Shown: piece after piece, positions 4,686-20,479 of the stretch
Layout of the letters: every line of letters starts with the position of its first letter
Position numbering within the stretch: the stretch's first letter is position 1
Source of the DNA: Vicinamibacterales bacterium
GTDB lineage: Bacteria; Acidobacteriota; Vicinamibacteria; Vicinamibacterales; UBA2999
NCBI GenBank assembly: GCA_050249615.1
Contig: JBFWQE010000013.1
Coordinates: 406 to 64,405, forward strand
Direction of reading: 5' to 3'
DNA: 64,000 nt
The notes under the pieces: generated by a model
The model's database searches: none
Told to the model about the DNA's origin: nothing
What the model saw: only the letters and a program-made list of their open reading frames with translations
Program-made: the position numbers and the translations under genes

Positions 4686-5060
4686 ACACCAACTCCATAT
4701 CCGACCGATGCGTGTGTGTGCGTACGTCCGCCGGCGCCGCGCGGTGCTCATGACCTCGATGACCGACCAGTGCGCAGTACCGGAGCCGTAGATTCATGCC
4801 CTGAGGCACGCGAGATCGACGCTAGCACACAGAAGGCATTCGAAGTCCGTTTGTTTTCGCTGGAGACATAAGATGACATACGTTACAGGACACAGGATGA
4901 CACCTCGATTCCTCGACAGATGATGGCGGGATGGCTTCAGTTCAGGGCGAGTCTCGGCCCAATCCGGCGGGATGCGACGAGGGACCAAAGCAGTGCACCG
5001 ATTGGTTGACAGATGCCCGACGCATGATGACCATCAATGCCGTTCACGAAAGGAGAAGAC

Positions 5061-5909
5061 GTGTCGACCGTCGTCGTGGCAGGTGCGACCGGATATCTGG
5101 GGCAGTTTGTGGTGGCGGAGCTGGCTCGCCGCGGACATCGGGTCCGTGCACTCGCGCGGCCGGGCAAATCGGTCGCGGGTGCAGCGGATGTGTTCGAGGC
5201 CGAGGCGACGCGGCCCGAGACCCTGCATGGCCTCTGCGATGGCGCGGAGCTGGTGTTCTCGAGCCTGGGCATCACGCGCCAGATCGATCGCGTGACGTTC
5301 GAGGACGTCGATCACCGCGCGAACGCGAACGTCCTGGCGCAGGCCGTCGCCGCCGGCGTGCGGCGCTTCGGTTTCGTCTCTGTCGTGTCGCCCGAGGTGT
5401 TCGCGCACTCGGCACTCGTGCAGGCGCGCGAGCGGTTCGTCGCCGAGCTCGCGCGCGCGCCGATCGAGGCGACGCTGATCCGTGCGACCGGCTTCTTCAA
5501 CGACATGGCGGAGCCATTCCAGATGGCTGCCAGGGGGCGCGTCTACCTGATCGGTCGCGGGACGACCCGGATCAACCCGATCCACGGTGCTGATCTCGCC
5601 ACGGCCTGCGCCGACGCCCTCGAGGTGGGTGATGCGGCACGCGCCGTCGGCGGCCCCGAGATCCTGACGTGGAACGAGGTCGCCGGGCTCGCGTTTCGCG
5701 TGCTCGAGAAGCCCGCGCGCGTCACCCACGTACCGAGCTGGATGGTTGGTGCGGCACTCCCCGCCATTCGGCTGTTCAGCCAACGCGCTCACGACATCGC
5801 GACATTCGTCCGGACGGTGATGACGCACGACATCACGGCACCGCAGAGCGGGAGCCACCGCTTGGAGGATCACTTTCGCGAGCTCGCGCGCGCCGGGGCA
5901 GACCGATGA
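5061..5909 (+). CDS. NAD(P)-binding SDR/NmrA-like oxidoreductase
   Basis: GTG at 5061 lies 6 nt after AAGGAG; the ORF track offers ATG at 5037. The N-terminus VVVAGATGYLGQFVVAELARRGHRVRALAR is a Rossmann GxxGxxG motif. Confidence 0.8.
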   Translation: MSTVVVAGATGYLGQFVVAELARRGHRVRALARPGKSVAGAADVFEAEATRPETLHGLCDGAELVFSSLGITRQIDRVTFEDVDHRANANVLAQAVAAGVRRFGFVSVVSPEVFAHSALVQARERFVAELARAPIEATLIRATGFFNDMAEPFQMAARGRVYLIGRGTTRINPIHGADLATACADALEVGDAARAVGGPEILTWNEVAGLAFRVLEKPARVTHVPSWMVGAALPAIRLFSQRAHDIATFVRTVMTHDITAPQSGSHRLEDHFRELARAGADR

Positions 5910-6075
5910 CAACCCCTCGGACCGGCCACGCCCGACAACGACCTCTTCACGTCGGGAAGGTCGGCGGAAACGAAGGGGGGACCTTCGGCACGCGCCCCGT
6001 GGCTCGGTCGATGCGCCGCGCCCAGACGCGGAGCGGCCCTTGCCGGCTGGAGACCTGATTATGTTGGATTCATTC

Positions 6076-6150
6076 TGGCTCCTCGGGCTGGATTCGAACC
6101 AGCAACCCTCCGGTTAACAGCCGGATGCTCTGCCGTTGAGCTACCGAGGA
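6076..6150 (-). tRNA. tRNA-Asn (GTT)
   Basis: The minus strand reads TCCTCGGTAGCTCAACGGCAGAGCATCCGGCTGTTAACCGGAGGGTTGCTGGTTCGAATCCAGCCCGAGGAGCCA. It has a 7-bp acceptor stem, anticodon loop CTGTTAA, a GGTTCGAATCC T-arm and an encoded CCA. Confidence 0.9.
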
Positions 6151-6201
6151 ACGCGGCAGGTGCGCGCCCGCGGACAGGACTCCCGCGGGCGAAAGGAACC
6201 C

Positions 6202-7629
6202 CTATCGTAAACCGACTTCGCCCTGCGCCGCAAATCCCTTCCGCACCATCCGGCCCCACCCCTGGCGGCCTCGGAGGAAGTCCACCGTCCCCTTCAATCG
6301 CCACCACGTCGTCAGCTGCCGGAACCCGAAGTTCTCGAGCACGCCCAGCGCCGCCAGCAGCAGTAGATCCCGCACGCGCGGGTAGCGCCGGAACGACACC
6401 TCCTCCAGCAGCACCGCCATCACCGAGATGAGGGCGCCGTAGGCGATGGCCGTCAGGAAGAACAGCTGCGCGAAGACCACGTCCACCAGCCCGAAGGCGA
6501 GCGCCGCGCCGTTGACCAGGTAGCCGAGCGACTCGACGACCGGGCCCGCCGCCTCGAAGATGGCGAAGTACGGCAGCGCGAAGAGTCCCACCACGCCGTG
6601 CCGCGCGCTCCCCATCATCGCAGCGTGCGCCGTCAGCACCTGCAGCGTCCCCCGCTGCCAGCGGTTCCGCTGGTTGGCGAGGATGGACGCCGACTCCGGC
6701 ACCTCGGTCCAGCACACCGGGTCCGGCTGGAAGACGATGCGGTAGGGGCGCCCACGCTGGCGCTGGAGGCGGTGCAGGCGCACGATCACCTCCATGTCCT
6801 CGCCGATGGTGTCGGTGCGGAACCCGCCCGCCTCGATCACGGCGTCGCGCCGGAACAACCCAAAGGCGCCCGACACGATGAGCAGCGCGTTGGCCGCGGA
6901 CATGGCGACCCGCCCGGCGAGGAACCCGCGGAGGTACTCCACCACCTGGAAGCGCGCCAGCCATCGGCGCGGCAGCCGCACCTCGGTCACGCGCCCCGCC
7001 TCCACCGTGCAGCCGTTCACGATGCGGACGATGCCGCCCATGGCGACGGTGTGGGGATCCTCGAGGAACGGCAGGACCGCGCGCGCGAGCGCGTGCTCCT
7101 CGAGCAGCGAGTCGGCGTCGATGACGCAGACCAGGTCGTGCTTGGCGGCATTGAGCCCCGCGTTGATGGCGTCGGCCTTGCCGCCGTTGGCCTTGTCGAT
7201 GACCACGAGGTTGGGATGGTCGAGCGATCGGTACAGCCCGCGGACCGGCGCCGTCTCGAGCGGCTGCCGGTACGCGACCGGCGCGCGCATCAGCCCGAAG
7301 GCCCCTTGCGCGGCGTCGATCGTGCCGTCTTCGGAGCCGTCGTTGACGACCACCACCTCGTACTGCGGGTAGTCCAGCAGCAGCAGCCCGCGCAGGCTCT
7401 CCGAGATGGTGGCCTCCTCGTTGTACGCCGGCACGATCACCGAGATGGGCGGCGTGGCCGGCGAGCGGAGCACCGTGTCGAGCTCGCGGGGAGTCCAACG
7501 CCGACGGTGCTGCATCAGGCGGACGAAGGCGACGACCGAGAACCCGAGGTACAGCGTATTGAGCGCCAGGAAATAGGAGAGGACCACGAGGTCGAAGCCC
7601 TGGACGAAGGTGACCAGCGACTCCCTCAT
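6202..7629 (-). CDS. processive family-2 glycosyltransferase (PgaC/IcaA/NfrB/YaiP-like polysaccharide synthase)
   Basis: The start MRESLVTF at 7629 overlaps the upstream stop (ATGA). Motifs: VIVPAYNEE, NDGSEDGT, VIDADS, GAFGLFRR, GEDMEV and QRNRW (QxxRW). TM helices are present at both ends. Confidence 0.85.
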   Translation of the reverse strand: MRESLVTFVQGFDLVVLSYFLALNTLYLGFSVVAFVRLMQHRRRWTPRELDTVLRSPATPPISVIVPAYNEEATISESLRGLLLLDYPQYEVVVVNDGSEDGTIDAAQGAFGLMRAPVAYRQPLETAPVRGLYRSLDHPNLVVIDKANGGKADAINAGLNAAKHDLVCVIDADSLLEEHALARAVLPFLEDPHTVAMGGIVRIVNGCTVEAGRVTEVRLPRRWLARFQVVEYLRGFLAGRVAMSAANALLIVSGAFGLFRRDAVIEAGGFRTDTIGEDMEVIVRLHRLQRQRGRPYRIVFQPDPVCWTEVPESASILANQRNRWQRGTLQVLTAHAAMMGSARHGVVGLFALPYFAIFEAAGPVVESLGYLVNGAALAFGLVDVVFAQLFFLTAIAYGALISVMAVLLEEVSFRRYPRVRDLLLLAALGVLENFGFRQLTTWWRLKGTVDFLRGRQGWGRMVRKGFAAQGEVGLR

Positions 7630-8696
7630 GGCCGCTCGTGCTCCCACAGGAAGTGGCGCGCCAGCTCGAGGCCGTGCCCGCCCAGGCCCGAGGCCTCGCG
7701 GGCGCGGAGCGCCAACACGCCCGGCCGGCCCAGCCACGCCAGCGCGCGCGCCCCCTGTGCCGCCACCTCCCACTCGTCGTCCAGGTGCGCGGCGAGATAG
7801 GGCACGACATCGGCGCGTCCCGTGCGGCCCAGTGCCTGCGCCGCGTGCGCGCGCACCCGCGGGTCGGCATCGCCCAGCGCGCGGAGTGCGTGATAGGCGG
7901 CGCGGTCGCCCACCCCGATGGCGCCGATGGCGCGCCAGGCGCCGGCGCGCACGCGCGCGTCCTCGTCCGAGGTCCACTCGAGCAGCGTGGCGCGGGCGCC
8001 GGGGCCGCCCACCATCGCCAGCACTTCGGCCAGCAGGATGCGCTCCTCGGCGTTGGCCGCGCCGCGCCCCACGATCGCCTTCGTGACCGGCGGGCCGATT
8101 CGCCGGAGCGCCTCGACGAGCCGCGCCTGCTGGTGGCGGGACTGCTGGCCGAGCCGCCCGAGCAGCGCCTCGATGGCGGCGGTGTCGCCGATCATCCCGA
8201 GCGCGTCGGCGGCGGCCGCCCGCACCTGGTCGCTGGCATCGTCGAGCAGGACCACCAGCGCGGGCACCGCCTCGGCGTCGCGAACAAGGCCGAGCGCGAG
8301 CGCGGCCCTCGAACGCACGGCCCAGGATCCGCGGGCCAGGCTCGTGCGCCAGCCGGCGAGCAGGCCGAGGTCCCGCGCCACCATCCGCGCGCGGTCCACG
8401 GTGTTGCCCCGGACCACGCGCAGCGGTTCGACGAGCGCGTCGGCCACGACGGCGCGATGGCGGCGGGCGGCGCGGCCGAGGGCCGTCATGGCTCGCGCCT
8501 GCGAGGCCTGGTCGCCCTCGAGCGCGTCACGGAGCAGCGGCGCGTACCGGGCGCGATCCCGCGCGTGGCGCGAGGCACGCCAGTCGCGGGCGACACGCTG
8601 TGCGATGACGACGACCAGCAGCAGGGCGACGGCTCCGCCCAGGAGGAGCAGGAGGGGTATCAGCCAGTCGCGCAACCGTTCGGCGAGGGCGAGCAC
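7626..8696 (-). CDS. membrane-anchored HEAT-repeat protein
   Basis: GTG start at 8696, 4 nt after the regulator stop. There is an N-terminal TM segment (WLIPLLLLLGGAVALLLVVVIA). HEAT/PBS-lyase-type units repeat: DQVRAAAADALGMIG, DARVRAGAWRAIGAIG, DPRVRAHAAQALGRTG. Confidence 0.75.
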   Translation of the reverse strand: MLALAERLRDWLIPLLLLLGGAVALLLVVVIAQRVARDWRASRHARDRARYAPLLRDALEGDQASQARAMTALGRAARRHRAVVADALVEPLRVVRGNTVDRARMVARDLGLLAGWRTSLARGSWAVRSRAALALGLVRDAEAVPALVVLLDDASDQVRAAAADALGMIGDTAAIEALLGRLGQQSRHQQARLVEALRRIGPPVTKAIVGRGAANAEERILLAEVLAMVGGPGARATLLEWTSDEDARVRAGAWRAIGAIGVGDRAAYHALRALGDADPRVRAHAAQALGRTGRADVVPYLAAHLDDEWEVAAQGARALAWLGRPGVLALRAREASGLGGHGLELARHFLWEHERP

Positions 8697-8700
8697 GGCG

Positions 8701-11118
8701 TTACCGGAGCAGGCGGGCGATGCGCGCCAGCAGCTCCTGTGGGCTGAAGGGCTTGGTCAGGTAGTCGTCCGCGCCGAGCTCGAAGGCGCGCATCACGTCC
8801 TCCTCGCGCGAGCGGGTGGACACCACGATGACGCGGGGGCGCGGTTCGGGCAGCTCGCGGAGGCGCGCCAGGACATCGAAGCCCGAGCGCTTGGGCAGCA
8901 TCAGCTCGAGCACCATGACGGAGGGCGCGCACGTGTCCACCTGGTGCAGCGCCGCCTGGCCGTCGAAGGCCACCACGGTCCGCAGGCCCGCGGCCTTGAG
9001 CCGCGCGTCGATGATGTGCACCACGTCGGGGTCATCGTCCACGACGAGGACGGTGGCCTGCTCGGCGGACACGCCGGCGCCGTGGAGCACGACGGGCCGC
9101 CCCACCACCTGCGCCTGTGCCAGCGCCGCCTCGGCCTGCGCGAGCAGGGGCTCGATGAACCGCTCCGCGGACAGGCCAGACGCCGCAATGCCCGCACAGG
9201 CCGCGTCGAGGCCCGCCGCGCGAGCGATGTCGAGCACGCCGCCGATGCGCCGGGCTGCCACGCCGGCCGAGGCGCCCGGCATGAGGACCACCAGCTGCGT
9301 CTCGCTGTAGCGCCCCAGCAGGTCCTTGCGCCGGAGATCGTCGGCGAAGAGCGCCGCCAGGTCGGCCATGGCGCGCGGCGGCACGCGCACGAGCCCGAGG
9401 GCGGCGGGCCCCTTGTGCAACACGTCGCGCGCCGCCGCCACGAAGGTGTCGGACGGCATCAACCCGCCGCCCGCGCGCGGCGCCGGCTGCTGCTCGGCCT
9501 TCGGCCGCGTCAGCATCCAGCGCACCCGCAGCAGCATCTCGACCGCGTGCACGGGCTTGGTCAGGTAGTCGTCCGCGCCCAGTGCGAAGCCCTCCATCCG
9601 GTCCACGGTAGAGCCATGCGAGGCGACCAGCACGACGGGGATGTCGGCCAGCGCGGGATCGCTCTTCAGCTTCCGGCAGACCGCGTGCCCATCCAGTTCG
9701 CCCGAGAGCTCCACGTCGAGCAGCACCACGGCGGGCCGGTCGGTCCTCGACACGGCCAGGGCGCGCAGCCCGTTGCCCGTGGACGTGACGCGATACGCCG
9801 CGCCGTGCAGGTCGTCGGTCATCTGCGACGCGAGCGCGCGATCGCCGATGACGAGCAGCACGTGCGCGCCCGCCAGCGGGCCGGGCGGGGCCGCCCAGAC
9901 CGGGGGCACGGCGGCGAGGTCCGTGGTGAACGCCTGCTGCAGCTCGTCGAAGGCCTGTCGCACGCGCGGGAGATGCTCGCCAGGCAACGACTCGAGCAGG
10001 CGGTCGAGTGCGATGGCGCGCTCGCTCACCGCGGGCATCCCCACGACCGCCGCGATGCCCGACAGCCTGTGCACGATCTGCCGCACGGCGAGGATGGGGC
10101 CCTGAGCGCCCTTCTGCTCGATCTCGGCGATCAGGGCGTCGATGCTGGCAGCACGCTTCGAGAACCCCGAGATGAAGCGGCTGCGCGCCTCACGGAGTGA
10201 GATCTCCGCATCGTCATTCTCGGGTGCAGGGTGCAGGGGTGCAGGGTGCACGGGTGCGGGGTGCAGGGGTGCAGAGTGCACGGGTGCGGGGGGCACGGGT
10301 GTGGGGTGCGGGGCATCGAGGCTGGCCTCGCCGACGCGGCCGGCGGCAGCAGCGGGCCGCGAAGGCGAGGGCTCGGCCACCGGAGCTCGTTCCGACAGAC
10401 TGCGAGAGAAGGCGGGCGTCAGGGCCGAGAGCAGCGGCGCCAGCTGGGAGGCCAGCAGCGTGGCCAGCGCCTCTGCATCGGGCGAGACGCGGGACCCGAA
10501 GGCCGGGTCGATCTCGGCAGTGAGCACCCCCACCGCGTGTTCGTTGCACAGCACCGGCACGGCGATCGCGGCCGGTCGGTTCGCGCCGCTGGCGCGCGTG
10601 CGGGTGCGCCGTTCCGTGAAGGCCGCTGTCGTGAGCGCCCGCGCCGCCAGTGGAAGCGGGCTGATCCGTGCGAGGAACGTTTCGCTATAGCCGTGCGAGG
10701 CCAGGACGTCAAGTTGCGTGCGATCGGGCGTGCAGGCCCAGACGGCCACGCCGGTCGCACCCAGCAGACGTGCCGCCGGCTCGAGGCGCCCGGCGGCCTC
10801 GGCGATCCCCGTCAAGCTGGCAGAGGCTGGCGCGACGATCGTGCGTGCCGCGCCGGCTTCCAGCGTCGGCTCCGGCGCCCGATCCGGGGAGCGTCGGGTA
10901 TCCAGGGGCGGGCCGGGCACGTCCTCGGGCGCCGCCTCGGTAACCGGGCGGGGCGAGCGTTCAGGTCCCGACGGCGACACCGATAGCCCGAGCGTCGATA
11001 CGCGGGACGCGTCCCCAGTCCCGCGTCCACGCCGCCGCAGCAACGTCACGGTGATTCCCACGCACACCAGGGCCGGCGTCGCCGCCGCGGCGGCGATCTG
11101 GGCCAGTGCCGATCTCAC
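8701..11118 (-). CDS. multidomain regulator: TM - GAF-like - Pro-rich repeat - Hpt - REC - degenerate GGDEF (I-site kept) - pseudo-REC
   Basis: GTG start at 11118. Hpt motif IVHRLSGIAAVVG. REC1 has VVLLDVELSG and GADDYLTKP. The GGDEF position reads RRKDLLGRYSETQLVVLMP: RxxD is kept and GGDEF is lost. REC2 reads VMVLELMLPK, with Glu where the acceptor Asp is expected, and GADDYLTKP. Confidence 0.8.
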   Translation of the reverse strand: MRSALAQIAAAAATPALVCVGITVTLLRRRGRGTGDASRVSTLGLSVSPSGPERSPRPVTEAAPEDVPGPPLDTRRSPDRAPEPTLEAGAARTIVAPASASLTGIAEAAGRLEPAARLLGATGVAVWACTPDRTQLDVLASHGYSETFLARISPLPLAARALTTAAFTERRTRTRASGANRPAAIAVPVLCNEHAVGVLTAEIDPAFGSRVSPDAEALATLLASQLAPLLSALTPAFSRSLSERAPVAEPSPSRPAAAAGRVGEASLDAPHPTPVPPAPVHSAPLHPAPVHPAPLHPAPENDDAEISLREARSRFISGFSKRAASIDALIAEIEQKGAQGPILAVRQIVHRLSGIAAVVGMPAVSERAIALDRLLESLPGEHLPRVRQAFDELQQAFTTDLAAVPPVWAAPPGPLAGAHVLLVIGDRALASQMTDDLHGAAYRVTSTGNGLRALAVSRTDRPAVVLLDVELSGELDGHAVCRKLKSDPALADIPVVLVASHGSTVDRMEGFALGADDYLTKPVHAVEMLLRVRWMLTRPKAEQQPAPRAGGGLMPSDTFVAAARDVLHKGPAALGLVRVPPRAMADLAALFADDLRRKDLLGRYSETQLVVLMPGASAGVAARRIGGVLDIARAAGLDAACAGIAASGLSAERFIEPLLAQAEAALAQAQVVGRPVVLHGAGVSAEQATVLVVDDDPDVVHIIDARLKAAGLRTVVAFDGQAALHQVDTCAPSVMVLELMLPKRSGFDVLARLRELPEPRPRVIVVSTRSREEDVMRAFELGADDYLTKPFSPQELLARIARLLR
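10222..10313. repeat. in-CDS tandem octamer repeat (GTGCRGGG)n encoding a PAPVHPAPLH linker
   Basis: The plus strand reads gggtgcagggtgcaggggtgcagggtgcacgggtgcggggtgcaggggtgcagagtgcacgggtgcgggg. The minus strand translates to PVPPAPVHSAPLHPAPVHPAPLHPAP. Confidence 0.8.
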
Positions 11119-11263
11119 GGCCGGGGTTATCGGCCGGAGATCACAGAAACGTCAGGCCGGGAATGGTTCAAGGGGTGCGCCAGGCCAGCCAACGCGTGTC
11201 GTACCGCGCCTTTCCGCGTAGCCGCCCTGCACCCCGCACCCTGCCCTTCCGATACCCCAATCG

Positions 11264-12496
11264 ATGAGTACCGTCCGCGCGTCCCTGCTCGCCTGTCTCC
11301 TCGCCCTGTTTCCGGGCGTCGTGCCGGGCGCCGCGCAGCCGCCGTCCGGCGAGGCCGTCCTGAAGGAGGCGCGAGCCGCCGCCACCAGCGGGCGCCGCGA
11401 CGCGGCGCTCGCGATGCTCGAGGCACGCCTGGCCACCGCGCCGCGCGACGTGGACGCACGCCTGCTCTACGGCCTGGTTCTTTCCTGGGCCGGTCGCTAC
11501 GAGGAGGCACGACGCGAGCTCGGACAGGTCCTCGCGCAGGCCCCAGCCTACACCGACGCGCGTGTCGCCCTGGCCAACGTCGAGTGGTGGTCGGGTCAAC
11601 CCGAACGCCTCGAGGCCGTGGCAGCCGAGGGGCTGCGCCTCCAGCCCGACGACCCGCGATGGCTGGTCTACCGGGCGAGAGCCCTCGACGGGATGGGTCA
11701 ACCGAGTCAGGCGCGCACCGCGATCGATCGTGTGCTCGCGCGCGACCCCGGCGACGTCGCGGCGCGCGCGCTCGGCGAGCGCATCGACGCGAAGCTCCAG
11801 CCCTGGTCGGCTCAGATCACCCACACGGCCGACTGGTTCGACGATGGGCGGGAGGCGTGGAAGGAGACGGCCGCCACCATCGGGCTGAAGACGGGCGTGG
11901 GTACCGTGCTGGCACGCGCGAGCTACTCCGAGCGCTTCGGCATGGCCGACACGCAACTGGAGCTCGAGGCGTATCCGCGCTTCCGTCCCGGCACCTACGG
12001 ATACGTCAACATCGGTGCCAGCGCGAACCAGACGCTGTACCCGGTCCGGCGCGTCGGGCTCGAGCTCTACCAGTCACTGGGCGGCGGCTTCGAGGCGTCG
12101 GGCGGGTGGCGCAGCCTGGACTTCGGCGAGACGACGAACATCTACGTCGGCGCCCTGACGAAGTACGCGGGCAACTGGATGCTGACCGGTCGCGTGTATC
12201 ACGTGCCGGGCGAGTCACGCGACTCGACGACCTACCAGGGGCAGGTCCGCCGCTATTTCGGATCCGACGGGACGAGCTTCTTCGGCCTCGGCTACAGCCA
12301 CGGATTTCAGCGCGAGGAGATCCGTAATGTCGCGGATTTGGCGTCGCTCGATTCCGACACCTATCGCGGCGAGCTGGACGCGCGCGTGGCGCGGCGCCTC
12401 CGCGCCGCCCTCTCAGGCAGCACCAGCCGTCAGCACCGCGCGTGGGGGCCGCTCCGCCAGAACACGTTCTCGGCCAGCCTGCGCGTGATCTTCTAG
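11264..12496 (+). CDS. TPR + YaiO-like outer-membrane beta-barrel protein (candidate EPS export porin)
   Basis: Signal peptide MSTVRASLLACLLALFPGVVPGAAQ, then ~170 aa of TPR-like helices. The C-terminal half has alternating beta-strand patterns and ends in aromatic ...FSASLRVIF. The YPRFRPGTYGYVNIGAS region resembles the YaiO family from memory. Confidence 0.65.
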   Translation: MSTVRASLLACLLALFPGVVPGAAQPPSGEAVLKEARAAATSGRRDAALAMLEARLATAPRDVDARLLYGLVLSWAGRYEEARRELGQVLAQAPAYTDARVALANVEWWSGQPERLEAVAAEGLRLQPDDPRWLVYRARALDGMGQPSQARTAIDRVLARDPGDVAARALGERIDAKLQPWSAQITHTADWFDDGREAWKETAATIGLKTGVGTVLARASYSERFGMADTQLELEAYPRFRPGTYGYVNIGASANQTLYPVRRVGLELYQSLGGGFEASGGWRSLDFGETTNIYVGALTKYAGNWMLTGRVYHVPGESRDSTTYQGQVRRYFGSDGTSFFGLGYSHGFQREEIRNVADLASLDSDTYRGELDARVARRLRAALSGSTSRQHRAWGPLRQNTFSASLRVIF

Positions 12497-12511
12497 CGCC
12501 GCCCGCCCGGC

Positions 12512-13381
12512 ATGTCTCCCCTTTCGCGGCTGATGGTGGCCCTGGTGATGCTGGCGACGTTCAGCTGGGCACTGCTGCCCTCCGCCGCAAGCACGGAGCG
12601 CGCCGGCGATCCCGAGGCCGAGGCCTGGATGGCGGAAAGCCGCGATGCCTTCGCCGACGGGCGGTGGCACGACGCGCTCGCCCCGACCCAGGCGCTGGTC
12701 GAACGCTTCCCGTCGCAACAGGTGTACTCGGACCGGCTGGCCCGCATCTATTTCGGGCTCGGACGTGCCGCAGACGAAGCCGCGGCGTGGGAACAGTTCG
12801 TCAAGGTGTCGCCGACGCCCGAGGACGCGTGCCCGGCAATCGGCCATGCCTACTATCGCGCAGGCGATCGCGCGCGGGCCCTCGAGGCCTTCAGGCGGTG
12901 CCGCGACTTCGACCCGATGAGCGCAGAGGGCGCGTACTTCCTCGGGCGGGCCTACCAGCGCGAGGGCCGCCACCAGGAGGCGCTGGAGACGTTCCGCGAC
13001 GCGGTGCGCGTGGATCCCGTGCACAGCGACAGCCGGGTCGGCCTGGCCAGTGCGCTCCTCCAACAGGGCGACGCCCGCGAGGCCCTTGACGTCATCGAGC
13101 CCAGCGTGTCGCGCGTGCCCGGCAATCCCGACGTGCACCTGATGCAGGGACTGGCCCTCCAGCGCCTGGGACGCCGGGCGGCGGCGCGCGCGGCGCTCGA
13201 GCGGGCAGCGGCACTCACGACCACTTACGTCGACGTGCACGTCGCCCTCGGCATCCTGGACTACAGCGAGGGCCGGATCGCGAGCGCGCGGGCGCGGTTC
13301 GAGCGCGCCCTCTCGCTCGGGCCGGACCGGCAGGCCGAACTGCAGGTGTGGCTCGAACGCACGGCGGAGGCGGGCCGGTGA
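12512..13381 (+). CDS. secreted TPR-repeat protein
   Basis: Signal-like MSPLSRLMVALVMLATFSWALLPSAAS. Multiple TPR units follow (AIGHAYYRAGDRARALEAFRRCRDFDP, YFLGRAYQREGRHQEALETFRDAVRVDP, etc.). Confidence 0.8.
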   Translation: MSPLSRLMVALVMLATFSWALLPSAASTERAGDPEAEAWMAESRDAFADGRWHDALAPTQALVERFPSQQVYSDRLARIYFGLGRAADEAAAWEQFVKVSPTPEDACPAIGHAYYRAGDRARALEAFRRCRDFDPMSAEGAYFLGRAYQREGRHQEALETFRDAVRVDPVHSDSRVGLASALLQQGDAREALDVIEPSVSRVPGNPDVHLMQGLALQRLGRRAAARAALERAAALTTTYVDVHVALGILDYSEGRIASARARFERALSLGPDRQAELQVWLERTAEAGR

Positions 13382-15840
13382 TCGCGCGCCTCGAGGGCCC
13401 GGCTCGTGTCGTCGCCGTCGGGTTCTGGTACTTCACGGCCGTCTTCACGTGGCTGGTGTCCATCCCGTTCGCGTACGCCAACTTCATCCAGCCGCGCCTG
13501 CTTCCAGACTTCATCCGGCTGGCGGAGAAGCACGCGTGGCTGACCGTCGTGCTGCTGCCCGTCGCGTGGATCAGCTTGTGTCGGCCGCTGGCGCATCCCA
13601 GGTCGAGACGGCTGGCCCAGGGCCTGCTGGGTGCGTGGGCCATTCTCGCGGTGGTGCTGCCGTTCACGCCGAGCCTGGCCGCCATCCAACCGGACGGCTG
13701 GGCGCTGGTGGCCTGCTTCACCGCGCTCGTCTTCCCTCTGGGCTGCGCCGTCGTGGACCTCCTGAGTGCGGATCCGCTTCCCGACCTGCCGGCCACCGAC
13801 CGCACCGCACGGGACTTCCTGGCCGTGGTCGGAGCAACCACGTTCGTCCTGATCTTCTACGCGTCCCAGGCCGTGGGATCGACCCCCTGGACGCCGATCG
13901 GCCTCGCGGCCAGCGTGCTGACGCACCTGGTCGCGGCTGCCGCGATGTTCCTCGTGCTCACCGCGCTTCGCGCGCTCGCGGCGCTGCGCGAGCGCCCCCT
14001 CTACGCGGAGTTCTGGCTGGCCACGATCCTGATCTTCGCCTGCCTCGCCGGCGTCATGGGCAGCATCGTCCTGCCCACGATCTCGGTGACGGGCGGCGCG
14101 CGCTGGTACGCCGGACAGGCCTTCGCGTTCACGCTGACCATCGGGCTCGTCGCGCGGGGCCGCTTGCAGGGCGCGGTGCACGGCGACGGGGTGCTCGTGG
14201 CGCTCGGCGGCCTGGTCCCCGCGACGCTGGCGGCACGGACGCTCTGGGTGTGGGCCCTCTGGCTGCCGGTCGTCGCCGGCGCAGGCCTCGGCATCGCCGC
14301 CATCGGGCGCATCGTCGACTGGAACTTCCTCGTCTCCACGCTCGGGGTGCTCATCGTGTGGGGGCTGTCCCTGGTGAGCGCGCTCGCCCTGCTCGCCACA
14401 CCCGGTCCGGGCCCGTCGCCGGCGCGGCTGCCCACGCGCGCCGCGCTGGCATGCTGCCCGGCGGCGCTCGTGATCTACCTGCTCGTCGTGCCGCCGCCGT
14501 CGCACGCGGACACCAGCACGCCCGTCGATGCCTGGACGGTGGCCGATCCCTCCTTCCGCACGCTGCGCGAAGTGCTGCGGCCGCCGGCCCCGGCCGACGC
14601 GGACTTCTACCCGTTCCTGCAGCGGCACACGAACCTCGGGCCCGAGGTGACGGTTCCCGTATTCGACGTGCGTCACGCGCCGCTCGGCGGCGTGCCCGCG
14701 GCCACGCGGCCGCACGTGTTCCTCTTCGTCATCGACAGCCTGCGGCGCGACTACGTGTCCGCCTACAACGCCGCCAACACCTTCACGCCCGCGCTGAAGG
14801 CCTTTGCCGCGGAGAACATCGTCTTCGAGCGCGCGTTCACGCGGTATGGCGCGACGGGACTGTCGGTCCCCTCGATCTGGGTGGGCGGGATGGTGCCGCA
14901 CAAGCAGTACCCGACGCCGTTCGGCCCATTCAATGCGCTGTACGCGCTGCTGATGGACCAGCAGTACACGCCGTGGCTCTCGTGGGACAACGTGGTGGAC
15001 GTCATCGTCCCGCGCGAGGGCACGGGGCCGCGGCTCAGCGCGAACCGGGCGGTGAAAGACTTCCGCTTCTGCGAGATGGTGGGCGACATCCGAAGCCGGC
15101 TGGACCAGCTGACGCCCGGCGGGCCTCCCGTGTTCACGTGGGGCCTCGCGCAGGACGTGCACATCTCGGCCATCACGCGGGAGGGCGGCGGCGTGGTGGA
15201 CCACGACCCATACCCGGGCTTCCACCCGCCCTACGCCTCGCGCGTGCGACGCGTGGACGCGTGCTTCGGCGCGTTCGTGGACGACCTGAAGGCGCGCGGC
15301 CTCTACGATCACAGCATCATCATCTTCACGGCGGACCACGGCGACTCGCTGGGCGAGGAGGGCCGATGGGGCCACGCGTACACGCTGTTCCCCGAGATCC
15401 TGCAGATTCCGCTCATCGTGCACCTGCCGCGTGCGATGCGCGAGGGGTTCGAGACCGACACGACGGCACCGGCCTTCACCGCGGACCTCACGCCGACGCT
15501 CCATGCGCTGCTCGGCTACGAGACGACGCCCCCGTCGCCGGCGTTCGGCGAGCCGCTGTTCTGGCCCCGCGGCCATGCGCGTCCCGTGCGCGCGAGCGAG
15601 GGCGCACTGGTGGCCTCGAGCTACGGCAGCGTGTACGGCTGGCTGGACGACAACGGGCGCCGGCTCTACGTGTCGGACGGCGTCTCGCTGCGCGACTATC
15701 GCTACGAACTGGACGGCACCCCGACGGGCCGCGCCCTGCCCGTCACCCCGGAGGAACGACGCGCCGGACAGAAGTCGATACGAGAGGCGATTGGGGAAGT
15801 GGCCACTTTCTATCGGTATGCGGCGGCGGTGACGAAGTGA
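13378..15840 (+). CDS. polytopic membrane protein with C-terminal sulfatase/alkaline-phosphatase-superfamily transferase domain (LtaS/EptA/BcsG-like)
   Basis: GTG at 13378 overlaps the upstream TGA (GTGA); the ORF track start is 13348. The first ~380 aa hold many TM helices, followed by FLFVIDSLRRDYVSAY, YGATGLSVPSIW and FTADHGDSLGEEGRWGH (DHG metal site). Confidence 0.75.
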   Translation: MIARLEGPARVVAVGFWYFTAVFTWLVSIPFAYANFIQPRLLPDFIRLAEKHAWLTVVLLPVAWISLCRPLAHPRSRRLAQGLLGAWAILAVVLPFTPSLAAIQPDGWALVACFTALVFPLGCAVVDLLSADPLPDLPATDRTARDFLAVVGATTFVLIFYASQAVGSTPWTPIGLAASVLTHLVAAAAMFLVLTALRALAALRERPLYAEFWLATILIFACLAGVMGSIVLPTISVTGGARWYAGQAFAFTLTIGLVARGRLQGAVHGDGVLVALGGLVPATLAARTLWVWALWLPVVAGAGLGIAAIGRIVDWNFLVSTLGVLIVWGLSLVSALALLATPGPGPSPARLPTRAALACCPAALVIYLLVVPPPSHADTSTPVDAWTVADPSFRTLREVLRPPAPADADFYPFLQRHTNLGPEVTVPVFDVRHAPLGGVPAATRPHVFLFVIDSLRRDYVSAYNAANTFTPALKAFAAENIVFERAFTRYGATGLSVPSIWVGGMVPHKQYPTPFGPFNALYALLMDQQYTPWLSWDNVVDVIVPREGTGPRLSANRAVKDFRFCEMVGDIRSRLDQLTPGGPPVFTWGLAQDVHISAITREGGGVVDHDPYPGFHPPYASRVRRVDACFGAFVDDLKARGLYDHSIIIFTADHGDSLGEEGRWGHAYTLFPEILQIPLIVHLPRAMREGFETDTTAPAFTADLTPTLHALLGYETTPPSPAFGEPLFWPRGHARPVRASEGALVASSYGSVYGWLDDNGRRLYVSDGVSLRDYRYELDGTPTGRALPVTPEERRAGQKSIREAIGEVATFYRYAAAVTK

Positions 15841-15923
15841 TGCCCTGCCCTCCTGGCTCCTGATCCCTGATCCCTGATCCCTGCCTTTCTGGACCCCCAC
15901 CCGTCCCCGCGGGGTCATACCAT

Positions 15924-16697
15924 ATGGGTATGCCCCTCCTGTCCGCCACGGACCTCACGAAGACCTACACCGGCGGCACGGCCACTGTCCGCGCGCTGGA
16001 CGGGGTGTCGTTCACCCTGGAGGCCGGGGACTTCGTCGCGCTCATGGGGCCGTCGGGCTGCGGCAAGTCCACGCTGCTGCACCTCTGCGGCGCGATGGAT
16101 CGGCCCACGTCCGGGCGGGTCGTCCTCGAGGGCCGCAACCTCGCGGAGCTGGCCGACGACGAGCTGACGAGGCTGAGGCGCGATCGCATCGGGTTCGTGT
16201 TCCAGTTCTTCAATCTGCTGCCGACGCTGACCCTCGGCGACAACATCGCGCTGCCCTGCCTGCTGGGCGGCATGGCAACGGCGGAGGCCGAGGCGCGCGC
16301 GGCGCGGCTCGCCGAGCGGGTCGGCATCGGCCATCGCCTGCGTCACTACCCGCAGGAGGTGTCCGGCGGCGAAATGCAGCGTGCTGCCATCGCGCGGGCG
16401 CTGGTGCACGAGCCGGCGCTGCTCGTGGCCGACGAGCCCACCGGCAACCTCGATTCCGAGAACGGCGCGCGGGTGCTGGCACTGCTGGCCGAACTGAACC
16501 GCGAAATGCACATCACCATCCTGCTGGCCACGCACGCGCAGGAAGTTGCGGCCGCCGCCGGCCGCGTGATGCGGATGAAGGATGGCCGCTTCGCCACTCC
16601 CGACTCCCGACCCTTCGACGGCGCTCAGGGTCGCCCTGAGCCTCTCGAAGGGCGACTCCCGACGCCCGGCCCCGTCGATGTTCTCCCGGCTGTTTAG
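15924..16697 (+). CDS. ABC transporter ATP-binding protein (LolD/MacB/AttE-like)
   Basis: Walker [10 protein letters not shown], signature SGGEMQR and Walker [13 protein letters not shown]. The conserved sequence ends near [10 protein letters not shown] (~16590). The last ~35 codons run through a repeat/palindrome element. Confidence 0.9.
16611..16652. repeat. REP-like nested palindromic element flanked by GACTCCC repeats
   Basis: CCCTTCGA-cggc-GCTCAGGG-tcg-CCCTGAGC-cctc-TCGAAGGG forms a 42-nt hairpin. It is flanked by actcccgactcccga (16596-16610) and cgactcccga (16653-16662). Confidence 0.7.
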
Positions 16698-19329
16698 CCA
16701 GTTCATCCTCCGCCGCATGGCGCAGGAACGCGCGCGGACGCTGACGACGGTCGTCGGCATCGCGCTCGGCATCGCCGTCGTCCTCGCCATCCAGCTGACC
16801 AACGCGAGCTCGGTGCGCGGGTTCGAGACCGCGCTCACGTCGGTGGCCGGCCGGACTTCCATCGAGATTCTGGGGACGGGCGGCATCGACGAGACCCTGC
16901 TGCCCGGGCTCGGCTGGCTCCGCGACTTCGGCGCCATGTCGCCGGTCATCGAGGGCGAGATGGCGATCGTCGGGAGCGGACCGGACACTCCGCAGCAAGG
17001 CTCGTCCACTCCCTCCACGCGAGCGGAGCGGGGGTTCCGGGCGCCTCGCAGCGAGGCCGTCAAGGTGCTCGGCGTCGACATTCTCCAGGACCTGTCCGTT
17101 CGCGACTACCTCGGCGTCGATGTGGAGACGCCGCAGCAGTTCCTCGAGCTGCTCACGAGCCCACGGGCGATCGTGATCACCGAGAAGCTGGCGCGGCGGC
17201 GGGGGTACGCGCCCGGCGACGAGCTGCAGCTGATGGCGGGCGACCGCGTGAACACGTTCGTGGTCCGCGGGCTGCTGAAGGACGAGGGGCCGGCGAAGGT
17301 GATGGACGGCAGCTTCGTGCTGATGGACATCGCGGCCGCGCAGCTGGCGTTCGATCGCCTCGGCCGCATCGATCGGCTGGACGTGCAGCTGCGTGGCGAC
17401 GGCGAGGCGGCGGCGAGCGCCCCGGGCTCCGCCGACATCGATGCCGCCCTGTCCGCCATCTCGGCGAGGCTGCCGGCGGGGCTCACCGCCCAACGGCCGG
17501 CGCGCCGCGGCGAGCAGGTGGAGCGCATGCTGGCCGCGTTCCACCTGAACCTCTCCGCGCTGTCGTGGGTGGCGCTGGTCGTCGGGCTCTTTCTCGTCTA
17601 CAACACCGTGACCATCTCGGTCATCGCGCGGCGTGAGGAGGTCGGCATGCTCCGCGCCCTGGGCGTGACGCGCCGGCAGGTGCTGGGGCTGTTCCTCGGC
17701 GAGGCCGCCGTGCTCGGCCTGGCAGGCACGCTCCTCGGCATCGGGCTCGGCCGGGTGCTGGCGGATGCGGCCGTCGGGCTCACGCGCTCCACGGTCAGCA
17801 CGCTCTACATCGCCACGGCGGCCTCGACGCCGGCGCTGGCCGGCTGGCACGTCGCGCTGGCCTTCGCCATCGGGCTGCCGCTGTCGCTCCTGGCCGCGTC
17901 GCTGCCGTCGCTCGAGGCGAGCCGCGTGCCGCCCACCGCGGCCATGCGCGGCAGCGATCGGCTGGAGTCGCGGGTGCGCCTCCGCGCGGTGTCGCTGATC
18001 GCACCCGCGCTGGTGCTCGCCGGCGCGCTCCTCCTGTCGCAGCTGGGCCCTGTCGGTGGACAGCCGCTCTTCGGCTACGCCGCCTCGTTTGCCACCATCA
18101 TCGGGGCCTCGCTGCTCGTCCCGGCCATCATCTACCTGCTGGCCCGGAGCCTCGCGGGCGTGCTCCGCCGCCTGCTGGGCGTCGAGGGCCTGCTGGCGCA
18201 CGCCAACCTGGCCGCGGCGATCCCGCGGCTGTCCATCTCGGTGGCGGCGCTCGCGGTGAGCCTGTCGATGATGGTGGCCGTGGCCGTGATGATCGGGAGC
18301 TTCCGCGACACGGTGGCCTACTGGGTGGGCCAGACGCTCCAGGCGGACCTCTTCATCGGCCCGGGCCTGCAGCCGACGGTGGGCTCGGAACAGACTCTCT
18401 CGGCGCCGGTCATCGAGGCCGTCGAGGCGCACCCGGGCGTGGAGGCCGTGGACTCGTTCCGCAACATCGACCTCGTCTACAACGGGAATCTCGTCGTGCT
18501 CGGCGCCGGGAACTTCGAGCTCGTGCTCTCGCACGGCTCGCTGCTCTTCAAGGCGCCCGCGGACGGGCGCGAGGCGCTCGGGCGCGCCATCGGCACCGAG
18601 TCGGTCGTGGTCTCCGAGGCCTTCGCCAACAAGTACGACACGAGGCCCGGCGACACGCTCACGCTGCAGACGCCGCAGGGCCCGCGACCCTTCGCGGTGG
18701 CGGCCGTCTACTACGACTACGCCGTGGACCGCGGCGTCATCGTCATGGATCGTGGCACGTTCCGGCGCTACTTCGGGGACCTCACCCCCAGCGGCCTCGC
18801 GGCCTACCTGAAGCCGGGCTTCGAGCCGGAGCGCGTGCGGGCCGAGATCCTGGCGGCGCTGGACGAGGGCCACCGCGCGTTCATCTACACCAACCGCGAC
18901 CTGCGCGCCGAGGTGCTCCGCGTCTTCGACAGTACGTTCGCCATCACCTACGCGCTCGAGATCATCGCCATCGTCGTGGCCATGCTCGGCGTGGGCGCGA
19001 CCCTGCTGACGCTGGTCCTCGAGCGGCAGCGCGATCTCTCGATGCTGCGGCTGATCGGCGCGGCCCGACGCCAGGTGCAGCGCGTCATCGTCATCGAGGC
19101 GGCGCTCATCGGGGCCGCCAGCCAGGCAATTGGCCTCGTCGTGGGCCTCGCGCTGTCGGTGCTGCTCGTCTACGTGATCAACGTGCAGAGCTTCGGCTGG
19201 ACGATCCAGTTCCGCGTGCCGGTCGCGTTCCTGGCGCAGGTGTCAATCGCCGTGATCGTCGCCACGGCCGTCGCCGGTATCTACCCGGCGCGCCGCGCGA
19301 CAAGGCTGGTGGTGGCGCGGGATGAGTAG
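16678..19329 (+). CDS. ABC transporter permease with duplicated FtsX/MacB-type domains (AttF/AttG-like fusion)
   Basis: The start [38 protein letters not shown] is at ATG 16678. Two FtsX-like 4-TM modules are separated by large periplasmic regions, ~884 aa in total. Confidence 0.85.
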
Positions 19330-20479
19330 CGGGCGAATGGGTGCGAACGGGTGCGGGCGGGTGCGGGCAGGTGCGGGCAGGTGCGGGGTTTCCCGGCACT
19401 CCGTACTGATGCTCCTCGTGCTGAGCCTCGCCGCCCTCTCCGCCGCAGGCTGGCGTGAGGCGGCGCCAGGGTATCGCTTCGAGTTCCCACGCGACCATGC
19501 GAGCCACCCTGAATACAAGATCGAGTGGTGGTACTACACGGGCAACGTCGAAACCTCGGCAGGCCGGAGGTTCGGTTACCAGGTGACGTTCTTCCGCGTC
19601 GGCGTGGTCCCGGTGCCGGAGAACCCGTCGCGGTGGGCGGTGCGGGATCTGTATATGGCCCACCTCGCGGTCAGCGACCCGGAGGGCCGGCGGTACCGCT
19701 TCGACGAGAAGCTCACGCGCGGCGGCCCGGGCCTCTCGGGCGCGGCGACGGATCGCTACCGCGTCTGGAACGAGGGCTGGACGGCCTCGCTGGACGACCA
19801 GGGTCGCCACGTGATCAAGGCTGCCGGCGAACGCGCCGGCGTGGACCTGGTGCTCTCCGAGGGCAAGGCGGCGGCCATCAACGGCATCGACGGCATCTCA
19901 CAGAAGGGCGCGCAGGCCGGCAACGCCTCGCACTACTACTCCCTGACGCGCATGCCCACGCGCGGCGTCATCGCCATCGATGGCGAGCGCTTCGAGGTCT
20001 CCGGCGAGAGCTGGATGGATCACGAGTTCGGCACGAGCTTCCTCGAGCGCGAGCAGCAGGGATGGGACTGGTTGTCCCTGCAGCTCTCGGACGGGCGCGA
20101 GCTGATGCTCTACCAGCTGCGTCGATCGGATGGCACGCGAGATCCGCGGTCGAGCGGGACGCTCGTCGACGCCGACGGCCGCACCACCCACCTGGCCGCC
20201 GCCGACTTCACGCTGGCGCCGACCGGACAGACCTTCAGCGCACCCTCGGGCGCGACCTATCCCATCGGCTGGACCATCGCGGTGCCCGGACTGGGCCTGG
20301 ACCTGCGCGTCTCGACGCCGATGGAGAACCAGGAACTGTTGACCCGCGGCGCCGGCATCGCATACTGGGAGGGCCTGGTGGACGTGGCCGGCACGTCCCG
20401 CGGCGCCCGCCTCACCGGCCGCGGCTATCTGGAGATGACGGGATACAAGGGCAGCCTCGGAAGGGTGATGAGTCAGTAG
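19322..20479 (+). CDS. AttH/CrtC-like (lipocalin-like) secreted protein
   Basis: FEFPRDHASHPEYKIEWWYYTGNV...GYQVTFFR is the AttH/hydroxyneurosporene-synthase-like signature. ATG 19322 overlaps the permease stop, but 19338-19388 is a (GGTGCGGGC)n repeat. ATG 19409 (MLLVLSLAALSAAG) may therefore be the real start. Confidence 0.8.
   Translation: MSSGRMGANGCGRVRAGAGRCGVSRHSVLMLLVLSLAALSAAGWREAAPGYRFEFPRDHASHPEYKIEWWYYTGNVETSAGRRFGYQVTFFRVGVVPVPENPSRWAVRDLYMAHLAVSDPEGRRYRFDEKLTRGGPGLSGAATDRYRVWNEGWTASLDDQGRHVIKAAGERAGVDLVLSEGKAAAINGIDGISQKGAQAGNASHYYSLTRMPTRGVIAIDGERFEVSGESWMDHEFGTSFLEREQQGWDWLSLQLSDGRELMLYQLRRSDGTRDPRSSGTLVDADGRTTHLAAADFTLAPTGQTFSAPSGATYPIGWTIAVPGLGLDLRVSTPMENQELLTRGAGIAYWEGLVDVAGTSRGARLTGRGYLEMTGYKGSLGRVMSQ

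Follow-up and report, generated by a model that had tools for sequence, protein, structure and literature searches.

A gene cluster at positions 6202-15840 was analyzed in a 64,000-nucleotide stretch of DNA from a Vicinamibacterales bacterium (contig JBFWQE010000013.1); this whole stretch is called the window. The names carried by close homologs likewise point to the Vicinamibacterales (Acidobacteriota). The cluster probably encodes an uncharacterized kind of synthase-dependent exopolysaccharide (EPS) secretion system, which would be controlled by cyclic di-GMP (c-di-GMP) and a phosphorelay and would include phospho-decoration of the polymer. The minus strand carries a regulator, a HEAT-repeat protein, and a family 2 glycosyltransferase (GT2). 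The plus strand carries a YaiO barrel protein, a TPR protein, and an alkaline-phosphatase-superfamily (AP) enzyme. These form two modules, HEAT-GT2 with its regulator and YaiO-TPR-AP, and the two were found to be repeatedly and non-randomly joined. The features of the locus, with the evidence for each, are as follows.

6202-7629, minus strand: GT2 synthase, 475 amino acids (aa); Pfam Glyco_tranf_2_3, invariant synthase motifs, transmembrane (TM) scan.
7626-8696, minus strand: HEAT-repeat protein, 356 aa; HEAT_2, N-terminal TM helix, upstream of the GT2.
8701-11118, minus strand: regulator, 805 aa; Response_reg, Hpt, GAF_3, sub-threshold GGDEF.
11119-11263, no strand: divergent intergenic region, 145 bp, presumably with both promoters; position between divergent operons.
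11264-12496, plus strand: outer-membrane exporter candidate, 410 aa, TPR and YaiO barrel; PF19413, TIGR04390, AlphaFold2.
12512-13381, plus strand: periplasmic TPR protein, 289 aa, with signal peptide; TPR_2, hydrophobic N-terminus.
13378-15840, plus strand: polytopic AP-superfamily enzyme, 820 aa; PF00884, AlphaFold2, conserved residues.

The GC content of the window is about 72% (70-75%) and, therefore, many of its long open reading frames (ORFs) are spurious. Third-position GC was 0.875-0.92 in all six named ORFs and low in the overlapping alternatives. This coding-type composition, together with the Pfam and NCBIfam matches that back every domain call, supports the six genes as real. The initial annotation, which was made by reading the sequence, had placed the locus at 6202-15840 and described three tight gene junctions, and both the bounds and the junctions were correct. 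Read from the sequence, 4 nt separate the regulator stop (8701-8703) from the HEAT start codon, which ends at 8696. The HEAT stop TGA (7626-7628) and the GT2 ATG (7627-7629) form an ATGA overlap, and the TPR protein stop TGA (13379-13381) and the AP enzyme GTG (13378-13380) form a GTGA overlap. A scan of positions 5800-16800 for sigma-70 promoters and terminators gave nothing above shuffle expectation, and no sigma-70 consensus was seen in the 145-bp intergenic region.

Judged by its sequence features, the GT2 is a PgaC-like synthase with every motif of processive synthases. Its catalytic domain matched Pfam Glyco_tranf_2_3 (E=5.5e-31), and hydropathy gave one N-terminal TM segment (hydrophobic residues 4-39), a cytoplasmic GT-A domain, and C-terminal TM helices at residues ~346-413. 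D97, K151/D153, D171xD173 (D171-A-D173 in the window), G276-E-D278, and Q320-R-x-R-W324 (QRNRW) were invariant in 25 GT2 homologs of 66-91% identity. The best NCBIfam score was to PgaC_IcaA (149 bits), followed by the XrtG-associated GT2 (113), CelA (72.5), and NodC (47). All of these scores were far below the equivalog cut-offs, as seen with PgaC/IcaA TIGR03937 (149 vs 422.3 bits) and CelA (72.5 vs 699). Over 275 aa, the protein shares 31% identity with E. coli PgaC, and it has two conserved family-specific insertions, at residues 119-138 and 207-220. It ends ~60 residues beyond the last TM helix, and Pfam found no extra domain there.

The best PDB sequence match of the GT2 was 6yv7 (E=2e-14), a GT2 that we take to be an archaeal N-glycan mannosyltransferase with a minimal cellulose-synthase-like fold. 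This match would fit a non-processive enzyme that places sugar on a polyprenyl-phosphate carrier or a lipid, with no polymer formed. We consider such an activity very improbable, since ArnC/DPM/AglJ-type NCBIfam models gave only ~20 bits compared to 149 for PgaC/IcaA, the QRxRW, GED, and DxD motifs do not vary, and the catalytic domain is followed by TM helices. The same evidence places the GT2 in a processive clade rather than a dolichol-phosphate-type one, in agreement with its first description as a synthase. More than 593 GT2 relatives were found in a scan of one genome per GTDB species. The best 80, which were 45-72% identical, came from Acidobacteriota, Gemmatimonadota, Bacteroidota, Ignavibacteria, Neomarinimicrobiota, Elusimicrobia, Lentisphaeria, Myxococcota, Bdellovibrio, Burkholderiales, Xanthomonadales and other Gammaproteobacteria, Nitrospirota, Nitrospinales, Sericytochromatia, Aquificota, Thermus, Rubrobacter, Thermoleophilia, and Clostridium.

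Two fused forms of the GT2 were also seen. In P0098 (592 aa), a Vicinamibacterales GT2 homolog, a REC domain is fused to the cytoplasmic C-terminus. The matching REC of locus L001 (L-numbers designate the loci compared) stays a separate gene, at 11410-11772, that overlaps the GT2 stop. The fusion and the overlap suggest direct control of the synthase by a receiver domain. In two Gemmatimonadales metagenome-assembled genomes (MAGs), a GT2 and a YaiO barrel are contained in a single 711-aa ORF (L054:9992-12127 and L078, ~9923-12124), with the signal-peptide-like hydrophobic stretch VAALLVLCLATPC between the two parts. The topology of such a fusion is unusual, as it joins an inner-membrane synthase to an outer-membrane barrel. 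The protein may be real and cleaved internally, or a stop codon may have been lost; the two MAGs are independent.

The partner of the synthase is the HEAT protein (HEAT_2, E=7.7e-31), in which the hydropathy scan found a TM helix at residues 8-37. In the HEAT family, lysine and arginine together average 0.5 in the 15 residues before this helix and 5.5 in the 20 residues after it and, therefore, the HEAT solenoid is predicted to be cytoplasmic. Few positions are conserved across the family, and this sparse conservation would suit a scaffold better than an enzyme. A survey anchored on the GT2 covered 83 loci, 81 of which had enough upstream DNA to assess the position of the HEAT gene. A HEAT homolog was located directly upstream of the GT2, ending at the GT2 start, in 79 of the 81, and these represent ~15 or more phyla, including monoderms. 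Pfam also detected HEAT repeats in the GT2 partners of Bdellovibrio, Burkholderiales, and Clostridium. The synthase genes are thus co-conserved, as the grouping in the initial annotation implied. From this gene order, HEAT-GT2 appears to be an ancient, obligate two-gene module, and the ATGA overlap points to translational coupling of HEAT to the GT2. The HEAT-GT2 pair reached no curated family model in NCBIfam, and neither a study nor a name for a HEAT-GT2 system was found in the literature. A phmmer search with the HEAT protein against 1.84 billion representatives returned ~25 full-length orthologs (~355 aa) in the top 150; the rest were mainly giant generic HEAT-repeat proteins, which swamped the search, so no family size is estimated from it.

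A large protein of 700-940 aa adjoins HEAT-GT2 in L033 (1602-4277) and eight further GT2-anchored loci, from Gemmatimonadota, Rubrobacteraceae, Clostridium, and Sericytochromatia. Its N-terminus is a signal or TM segment, a few TPR repeats come next, and the ~700 residues beyond them gave no Pfam match. The protein occurs where no YaiO barrel was found, and it may serve there as another component of the periplasm or the cell exterior.

The regulator matched Response_reg (E=7e-44, two stretches), Hpt (E=1e-6), and GAF_3 (E=1.4e-6) in Pfam. Its parts, all on the minus strand, are arranged in the following order.

TM segment.
10438-10782: GAF.
Proline-rich linker.
9934-10146: Hpt.
9499-9864: REC1.
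9064-9471: GGDEF-like.
8719-9051: REC2.

The stretch between REC1 and REC2 matched GGDEF PF00990 with E=0.006 and 16.7 bits, below the cut-off of 23.8. It reads RRKD-LLGRY-SETQL, in which the RxxD I-site is intact, five residues follow, and the GGDEF motif is destroyed. This pattern is kept in orthologs and aligns with the RxxD-x5-GGEEF of intact neighbors in other phyla. With an iterated profile, 26 of the 83 loci in the GT2 survey were found to have a GGDEF-like domain, most often as part of the gene immediately upstream of HEAT. The GGEEF/GGDEF motif is intact in Neomarinimicrobiota, Lentisphaeria, and Nitrospirota and near-intact in Gemmatimonadota; in Acidobacteriota and Myxococcota, it is degenerate and RxxD is retained. 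A REC-containing gene was present within 5 kb of the GT2 in 73/83 loci, and L001 additionally carries a CHASE3 hybrid kinase and an Hpt protein. The GGDEF-like domains and the REC and Hpt genes at these loci therefore tie the system to c-di-GMP signaling and a phosphorelay. PelD, which is a membrane protein, combines a GAF domain with a degenerate GGDEF whose RxxD I-site binds c-di-GMP, and the window regulator is most simply read as a putative I-site c-di-GMP receptor of the same type. The Hpt and REC domains named in the initial annotation were confirmed, but the putative degenerate GGDEF with its intact I-site had been overlooked.

Two other features of the regulator were observed. The phospho-acceptor site of REC2 is VLELMLP, with Glu in place of Asp, in the window, in L003, and in a Myxococcales homolog; the Asp is retained in REC2 of L001 and L004. 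Given this substitution, REC2 may be a phosphomimetic or pseudo-receiver. The linker between GAF and Hpt (residues 275-300, ~10219-10296, minus strand) is the proline-rich repeat PAPVHSAPLHPAPVHPAPLHPAP, and its length varies among orthologs.

The exporter candidate is composed of a signal peptide or hydrophobic N-terminus, five TPR pairs (11348-11797), and a YaiO barrel (11804-12490). The barrel scored above both curated cut-offs, with 149.8 bits vs 23.9 for PF19413 (E=1e-43) and 122.5 bits vs 32 for TIGR04390, and TPR repeats were detected as well. AlphaFold2 (pLDDT 89.7, pTM 0.80) predicted ten TPR helices and then, at residues 181-409, a run of 14 antiparallel strands. When the whole model was compared to the PDB with Foldseek, E. 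coli BcsC was the first match (E=3e-10) and PelB of the PelBC exporter was the third (E=1e-8). The barrel alone superposed best on the 14-strand OmpG (TM-score 0.63). The scores, the predicted barrel, and the BcsC and PelB matches bear out the earlier assignment to a YaiO/porin type. BLASTP gave no alignment of the barrel domain with E. coli YaiO, the sole match being to the GT2 (E=2.4), so membership in the YaiO family holds at the profile level only. No functional work on YaiO was found in the literature searched, in which yaiO is mainly a PCR marker for E. coli.

With an iterated barrel profile, a YaiO-like barrel was found within 10 kb of the GT2 in 38 of the 83 loci, usually adjoining HEAT-GT2. 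The gene order is REC (125 aa)-YaiO (250)-HEAT (360)-GT2 (470) in Proteobacteria and REC-TPR/YaiO-HEAT-GT2 in Bacteroidota and Ignavibacteria; in Neomarinimicrobiota and Balneolales, the GT2 is followed by TPR/YaiO. The separate TPR protein of the window matched TPR_2 with E=1.2e-26.

The last gene of the plus strand encodes a protein with ~11 TM helices (13378-14577) and a periplasmic catalytic domain (14695-15837). It matched Pfam Sulfatase PF00884 with 76.2 bits vs 25. AlphaFold2 (pLDDT 87.6) also gave ~11 TM helices and a domain with the alkaline-phosphatase fold, in agreement with the hydropathy scan and with the helix count of the initial annotation. The family is small, with 140 matches, all of ~800-840 aa. 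D453, T493, D653, H654, and H666 were invariant in 41 sequences of the family, as were the polar TM-domain residues D127, H183, E211, and D314. The C/S-x-P-x-R formylglycine motif is missing at the nucleophile site, which reads A-T493-G-L-S-V-P-S-I with no Arg and an unconserved S496. T493-GLSVP aligned with T282-AVSVP of E. coli EptA (TxxSVP), and DHGDSLGEEG aligned with DHGESLGENG of EptA. Because the formylglycine motif is missing, T493 and the metal ligands are invariant, and the motifs are of the EptA type, the AP enzyme is predicted to be a catalytically competent, periplasm-facing phosphotransferase with a Thr nucleophile. The donor and acceptor proposed for it below are ones that we infer.

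In a Foldseek search, the closest match of the AP domain was the periplasmic domain of PbgA/YejM (TM-score 0.70-0.76), followed by LtaS/LtaP and sulfatases. The curated EptA, MCR, LtaS, and YejM models gave only 15-27 bits vs cut-offs of 500-970. The initial annotation had called the enzyme BcsG-like. This applies to its position in the locus but not to its sequence, since no similarity to BcsG was detectable by BLASTP, the AP family profile scored BcsG at 1.0 bit, the motifs resemble those of EptA, and PbgA and LtaS are nearest in fold.

The fold matches leave room for functions other than decoration. The enzyme could be a hydrolase (phosphodiesterase or sulfatase) by which the polymer is trimmed or released, a PbgA-like sensor without catalytic activity, or an LtaS-like polymerase that builds polyol-phosphate on the glycan. 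The Pfam Sulfatase threshold was passed, many sulfatases and phosphonate monoester hydrolases match in sequence and fold, and LtaS and LtaP are among the fold matches. Also, the ~11-TM domain, with its conserved D127, H183, E211, and D314, is far larger than the 5-TM anchors of EptA, LtaS, and PbgA. However, a sulfatase is at odds with the lack of C/S-x-P-x-R and with a variable S496 beside an invariant T493. A PbgA-like sensor is at odds with the invariant DH metal ligands, since E. coli YejM/LapC does not have a DH pair at the aligned position, and the TxxSVP and DHG[DE]SLGE motifs match those of EptA. Taken together, we regard a role other than decoration as unlikely.

A different AP enzyme was found at loci of Bacteroidota, Balneolales, and Rhodothermales. 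It has 4-5 TM helices and an AP domain fused to C-terminal TPR repeats (819-845 aa), and it lies next to TPR-YaiO and HEAT-GT2 at L020:11060-13519, L053:12897-15371 (minus strand), and L074:9634-12171 (minus strand). The fusion gene overlaps the adjoining TPR-YaiO gene by a few nucleotides. This fusion links the TPR and AP genes that are separate in the window.

The linkage of the two modules was examined from the side of the AP enzyme in metagenome loci, 41 of which had at least 2.2 kb of upstream DNA and 23 of which had adequate flanks for a 10-kb check. YaiO was present in 37/41 and TPR in 39/41. GT2 and HEAT were found within 10 kb of the AP gene in 13 of the 23 well-flanked loci, in three gene orders. 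In the first trio-anchored loci, the trio had appeared mostly unlinked to a GT2 (1/6), and this view was overturned by the larger metagenome sample. The divergent layout of the window recurs in L003, where the GT2 is 82% identical, in L095, which is on a 4.6-Mb contig, and in a Bryobacteraceae MAG. Bdellovibrio sp. qaytius, whose genome is complete, and Geothrix have the six genes together on one strand as a single operon, TPR-AP-YaiO-REC-HEAT-GT2, with small gaps and overlaps. The Bdellovibrio proteins are AZZ36849-54, four of which are annotated as hypothetical. The co-conservation of the two halves, which the initial annotation had treated as one locus, was thus supported by adjacency in 13/23 loci, including these operons, but the trio is separable and also occurs without a synthase nearby.

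This separability raises the possibility that the two halves are unrelated neighbors, with regulator-HEAT-GT2 making a polymer and YaiO-TPR-AP acting as an independent envelope module that neither exports nor modifies it. Such a trio could, for example, have a porin of its own and serve to phospho-modify or sense lipopolysaccharide (LPS), lipids, or periplasmic glucans. It would fit with the compact trio operons that have no GT2 or HEAT within 9-10 kb in L091-L094, L096, and 10/23 metagenome loci, with the absence of the AP enzyme from most HEAT-GT2 loci, and with PbgA/YejM, an LPS-homeostasis protein, being the closest AP fold. We nevertheless find two separate systems rather improbable. For genes with one copy per genome, adjacency in 13/23 loci greatly exceeds what chance would give, and it is kept through three gene orders, including overlapping stop and start codons in Geothrix and Bdellovibrio. 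YaiO barrels alone also recur as direct neighbors of HEAT-GT2 in many phyla, and the trio-only genomes may hold HEAT-GT2 elsewhere. We regard YaiO-TPR-AP as an accessory to HEAT-GT2 that may sometimes act alone.

Several observations weigh against a single secretion system in which all six genes take part. The trio occurs by itself in the loci just listed and, therefore, may have its own function. An AP-superfamily enzyme was present in only 9 of the 83 GT2-anchored loci and, therefore, is not a core component. The YaiO barrel is not a core component either, as 45/83 of these loci have none. The predicted 14-strand barrel would also be narrower than those of the known exporters BcsC, PgaA, PelB, and AlgE, which have 16-18 strands, 16 in PgaA. 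The locus contains no glycoside hydrolase or deacetylase, unlike most synthase-dependent systems. The GGDEF assignment is sub-threshold (16.7 vs 23.8 bits), and c-di-GMP binding is a prediction from the motif alone. PbgA/YejM, the closest structural relative of the AP domain, is not known to be a transferase. Finally, no literature on the system was found, and its members are known from their genes alone.

The loci that have no barrel also bear on where the product ends up. HEAT-GT2 could make a glycan that the cell retains, either a periplasmic glucan of the osmoregulated periplasmic glucan (OPG) type or a wall- or membrane-anchored polymer, which the AP enzyme would decorate in the manner of OpgB/OpgE. 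Monoderms also carry HEAT-GT2, no porin could be detected at many of the diderm loci, and OPG systems pair the membrane GT2 OpgH with membrane-bound AP-superfamily phosphoglycerol and phosphoethanolamine transferases. In contrast, the GT2 is PgaC/BcsA-like and not OpgH-like, the locus holds a TPR-barrel protein with BcsC and PelB as its best structural matches, and c-di-GMP/REC-GGDEF control is typical of biofilm matrix polymers. A retained glycan is therefore quite improbable, and secretion of the polymer is preferred.

For a secreted polymer, the six proteins could work as follows. The GT2 would polymerize a nucleotide sugar and thread the chain across the inner membrane. Since no dedicated precursor genes are linked, the sugar substrate is probably UDP-GlcNAc or UDP-Glc. 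The HEAT protein would be a cytoplasmic scaffold or co-activator that couples the synthase to the regulator, in the place held elsewhere by PgaD, PilZ, or Alg44. The regulator would join a phosphorelay (Hpt, REC) with c-di-GMP at the retained I-site, as in PelD. In the periplasm, the AP enzyme would use its Thr nucleophile to move a phospholipid-derived phospho-head-group onto the nascent chain, with phosphoethanolamine or phosphoglycerol as candidates by analogy with EptA, BcsG, and OpgB. Export would go through the YaiO barrel, to which the chain would be guided by the free TPR protein and the porin's own TPR domain. In this scheme, we infer the polymer, the transferred group, the binding of c-di-GMP, and the role of the HEAT protein.

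A broader proposal is made more tentatively, as one that has a real but lesser chance of being correct. In it, the REC/GGDEF regulator, HEAT, and GT2 would constitute a distinct, widespread family of polysaccharide machines beside those for cellulose, poly-N-acetylglucosamine, alginate, Pel, and Nfr. HEAT would be a new kind of co-synthase or signal receiver. The 14-strand YaiO barrels would be the exporters of the family, which would give the orphan YaiO proteins, that of E. coli included, their first function. A new EptA-like transferase with ~11 TM helices would also add phospho-groups to the polymer in Acidobacteriota and Bdellovibrio.

The neighbors of the locus were also considered. Just downstream of the AP gene, at 15924-20479 on the plus strand, are an ABC ATPase, an FtsX permease, and a double-lipocalin protein of the CrtC/AttH type. 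The permease is a 915-aa ORF with two MacB periplasmic core domains, and its called start overlaps the ATPase gene. This triad was rejected as a part of the system because it is syntenic only in the close relatives L095 and, in part, L003; Bdellovibrio, Geothrix, and Bryobacteraceae do not show this synteny. The triad is probably an independent transporter that resembles YbbA/YbbP. On the other side, at 1773-4751 on the minus strand, is a 992-aa secreted protein with C-terminal fn3/PKD-like repeats and a BNR-like SxxxGxTW motif, which is not conserved beside the locus in relatives.

Synthase-dependent EPS systems have a central place in the biology of biofilms, and only a few types of them are defined so far. 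The carriers of the system described here belong to Acidobacteriota, Gemmatimonadota, Nitrospirota, Myxococcota, and Bacteroidota, which are poorly studied, dominant phyla of soil and sediment. It is also present in culturable Massilia, Luteimonas, Thermus, Salinibacter, Gracilimonas, and Bdellovibrio and, therefore, is directly testable. If the proposed reading is true, it would give a function for the orphan YaiO outer-membrane family, as well as a HEAT-repeat co-synthase and a link between phosphorelay, c-di-GMP, and synthase. It would also provide a new class of enzymes for the phospho-modification of secreted glycans, and it would be relevant to soil aggregation and to the matrix chemistry of uncultured Acidobacteriota.

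The locus was compared to the known systems that it most resembles. BLASTP against E. coli YaiO, YaiP, PgaA/C/D, NfrA, YbcH, and BcsA/E/G gave only matches of the GT2 to PgaC, BcsA, and YaiP and matches at the TPR level. PgaABCD/IcaADBC contains the closest characterized relative of the GT2, a TPR-barrel exporter, a membrane partner adjoining the synthase, and c-di-GMP control. However, the PgaA model TIGR03939 gave 31.6 vs 366.65 bits, the PgaC cut-off was not reached, and no PgaB-type deacetylase/hydrolase or PgaD was found in the six genes and their flanks. The window has a 356-aa HEAT protein in the place of PgaD, a 14-strand YaiO barrel, and two insertions in the GT2.

The Bcs system with BcsG and BcsC likewise combines a GT2, a membrane-bound periplasmic AP-superfamily enzyme, and a TPR-porin, and BcsC is the best PDB match of the exporter candidate. 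It differs in that the window has no PilZ (Pfam) or BcsB, its AP enzyme is a ~11-TM protein with Thr, where the nucleophile of BcsG is Ser, and the GT2 scored below the CelA cut-off. Pel resembles the window in its regulator, since TM, GAF, and a putative degenerate GGDEF with RxxD are found as in PelD, and PelB is among the top fold matches of the exporter candidate. In contrast, Pel uses the GT4 PelF with PelG and PelE rather than a GT2 and HEAT, and the window regulator adds Hpt and two REC domains. NfrB-NfrA-YbcH of E. coli also has a c-di-GMP-activated GT2 and a TPR-containing outer-membrane protein. The C-terminal c-di-GMP-binding domain reported for NfrB is MshEN; the window GT2 (475 aa) has no room for such a domain, and NfrA gives BLASTP matches at the TPR level only.

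An accessory family, c3, was found in 13 related loci, including L056:2880-3821 and L001:14396-15766, and is absent from the window. Its members are 313-669 aa in length and have a signal peptide and no Pfam match, with a weak CBM30 in one of them. A relationship of c3 to YbcH was considered, and it was not relied on because the match was weak (17.7 bits in a database of 11 sequences).

The E. coli yaiS-yaiP-yaiX-yaiO cluster, which the initial annotation had cited as a parallel, has a YaiO-family protein beside a GT2 and modifiers (an acyltransferase and a deacetylase). In K-12 (NC_000913.3 380069-384616, L084), yaiS (deacetylase), yaiP (GT2), yaiX (acyltransferase, split by IS2), and yaiO are co-directional, and the cluster looks like a decayed, uncharacterized EPS locus. 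The parallel is useful as an analogy but does not extend to orthology. The window GT2 shares 28% identity with YaiP over 235 aa (E=3e-11) and is not orthologous to it, the barrel had no BLASTP match, E. coli YaiO has no TPR, and its cluster has no HEAT partner, REC regulator, or AP enzyme.

EptA/MCR, LtaS, OpgB, and PbgA (YejM/LapC) share with the AP enzyme a periplasmic AP fold on a TM domain, and its TxxSVP and DHG[DE]SLGE motifs are those of EptA. However, the window enzyme has ~11 TM helices vs 5, and its first metal ligand is Asp453 vs the Glu of the EptA GET motif. The earlier view that this combination of genes lies outside the named EPS systems was upheld, as the locus matches none of the curated Pga, Bcs, or Nfr models and falls outside Pel as well. 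What distinguishes this candidate system is its proposed HEAT co-synthase, its family of REC/GGDEF regulators, a YaiO exporter with 14 strands, and an AP enzyme with ~11 TM helices; it would otherwise work like Pga, Bcs with BcsG, Pel, and Nfr.

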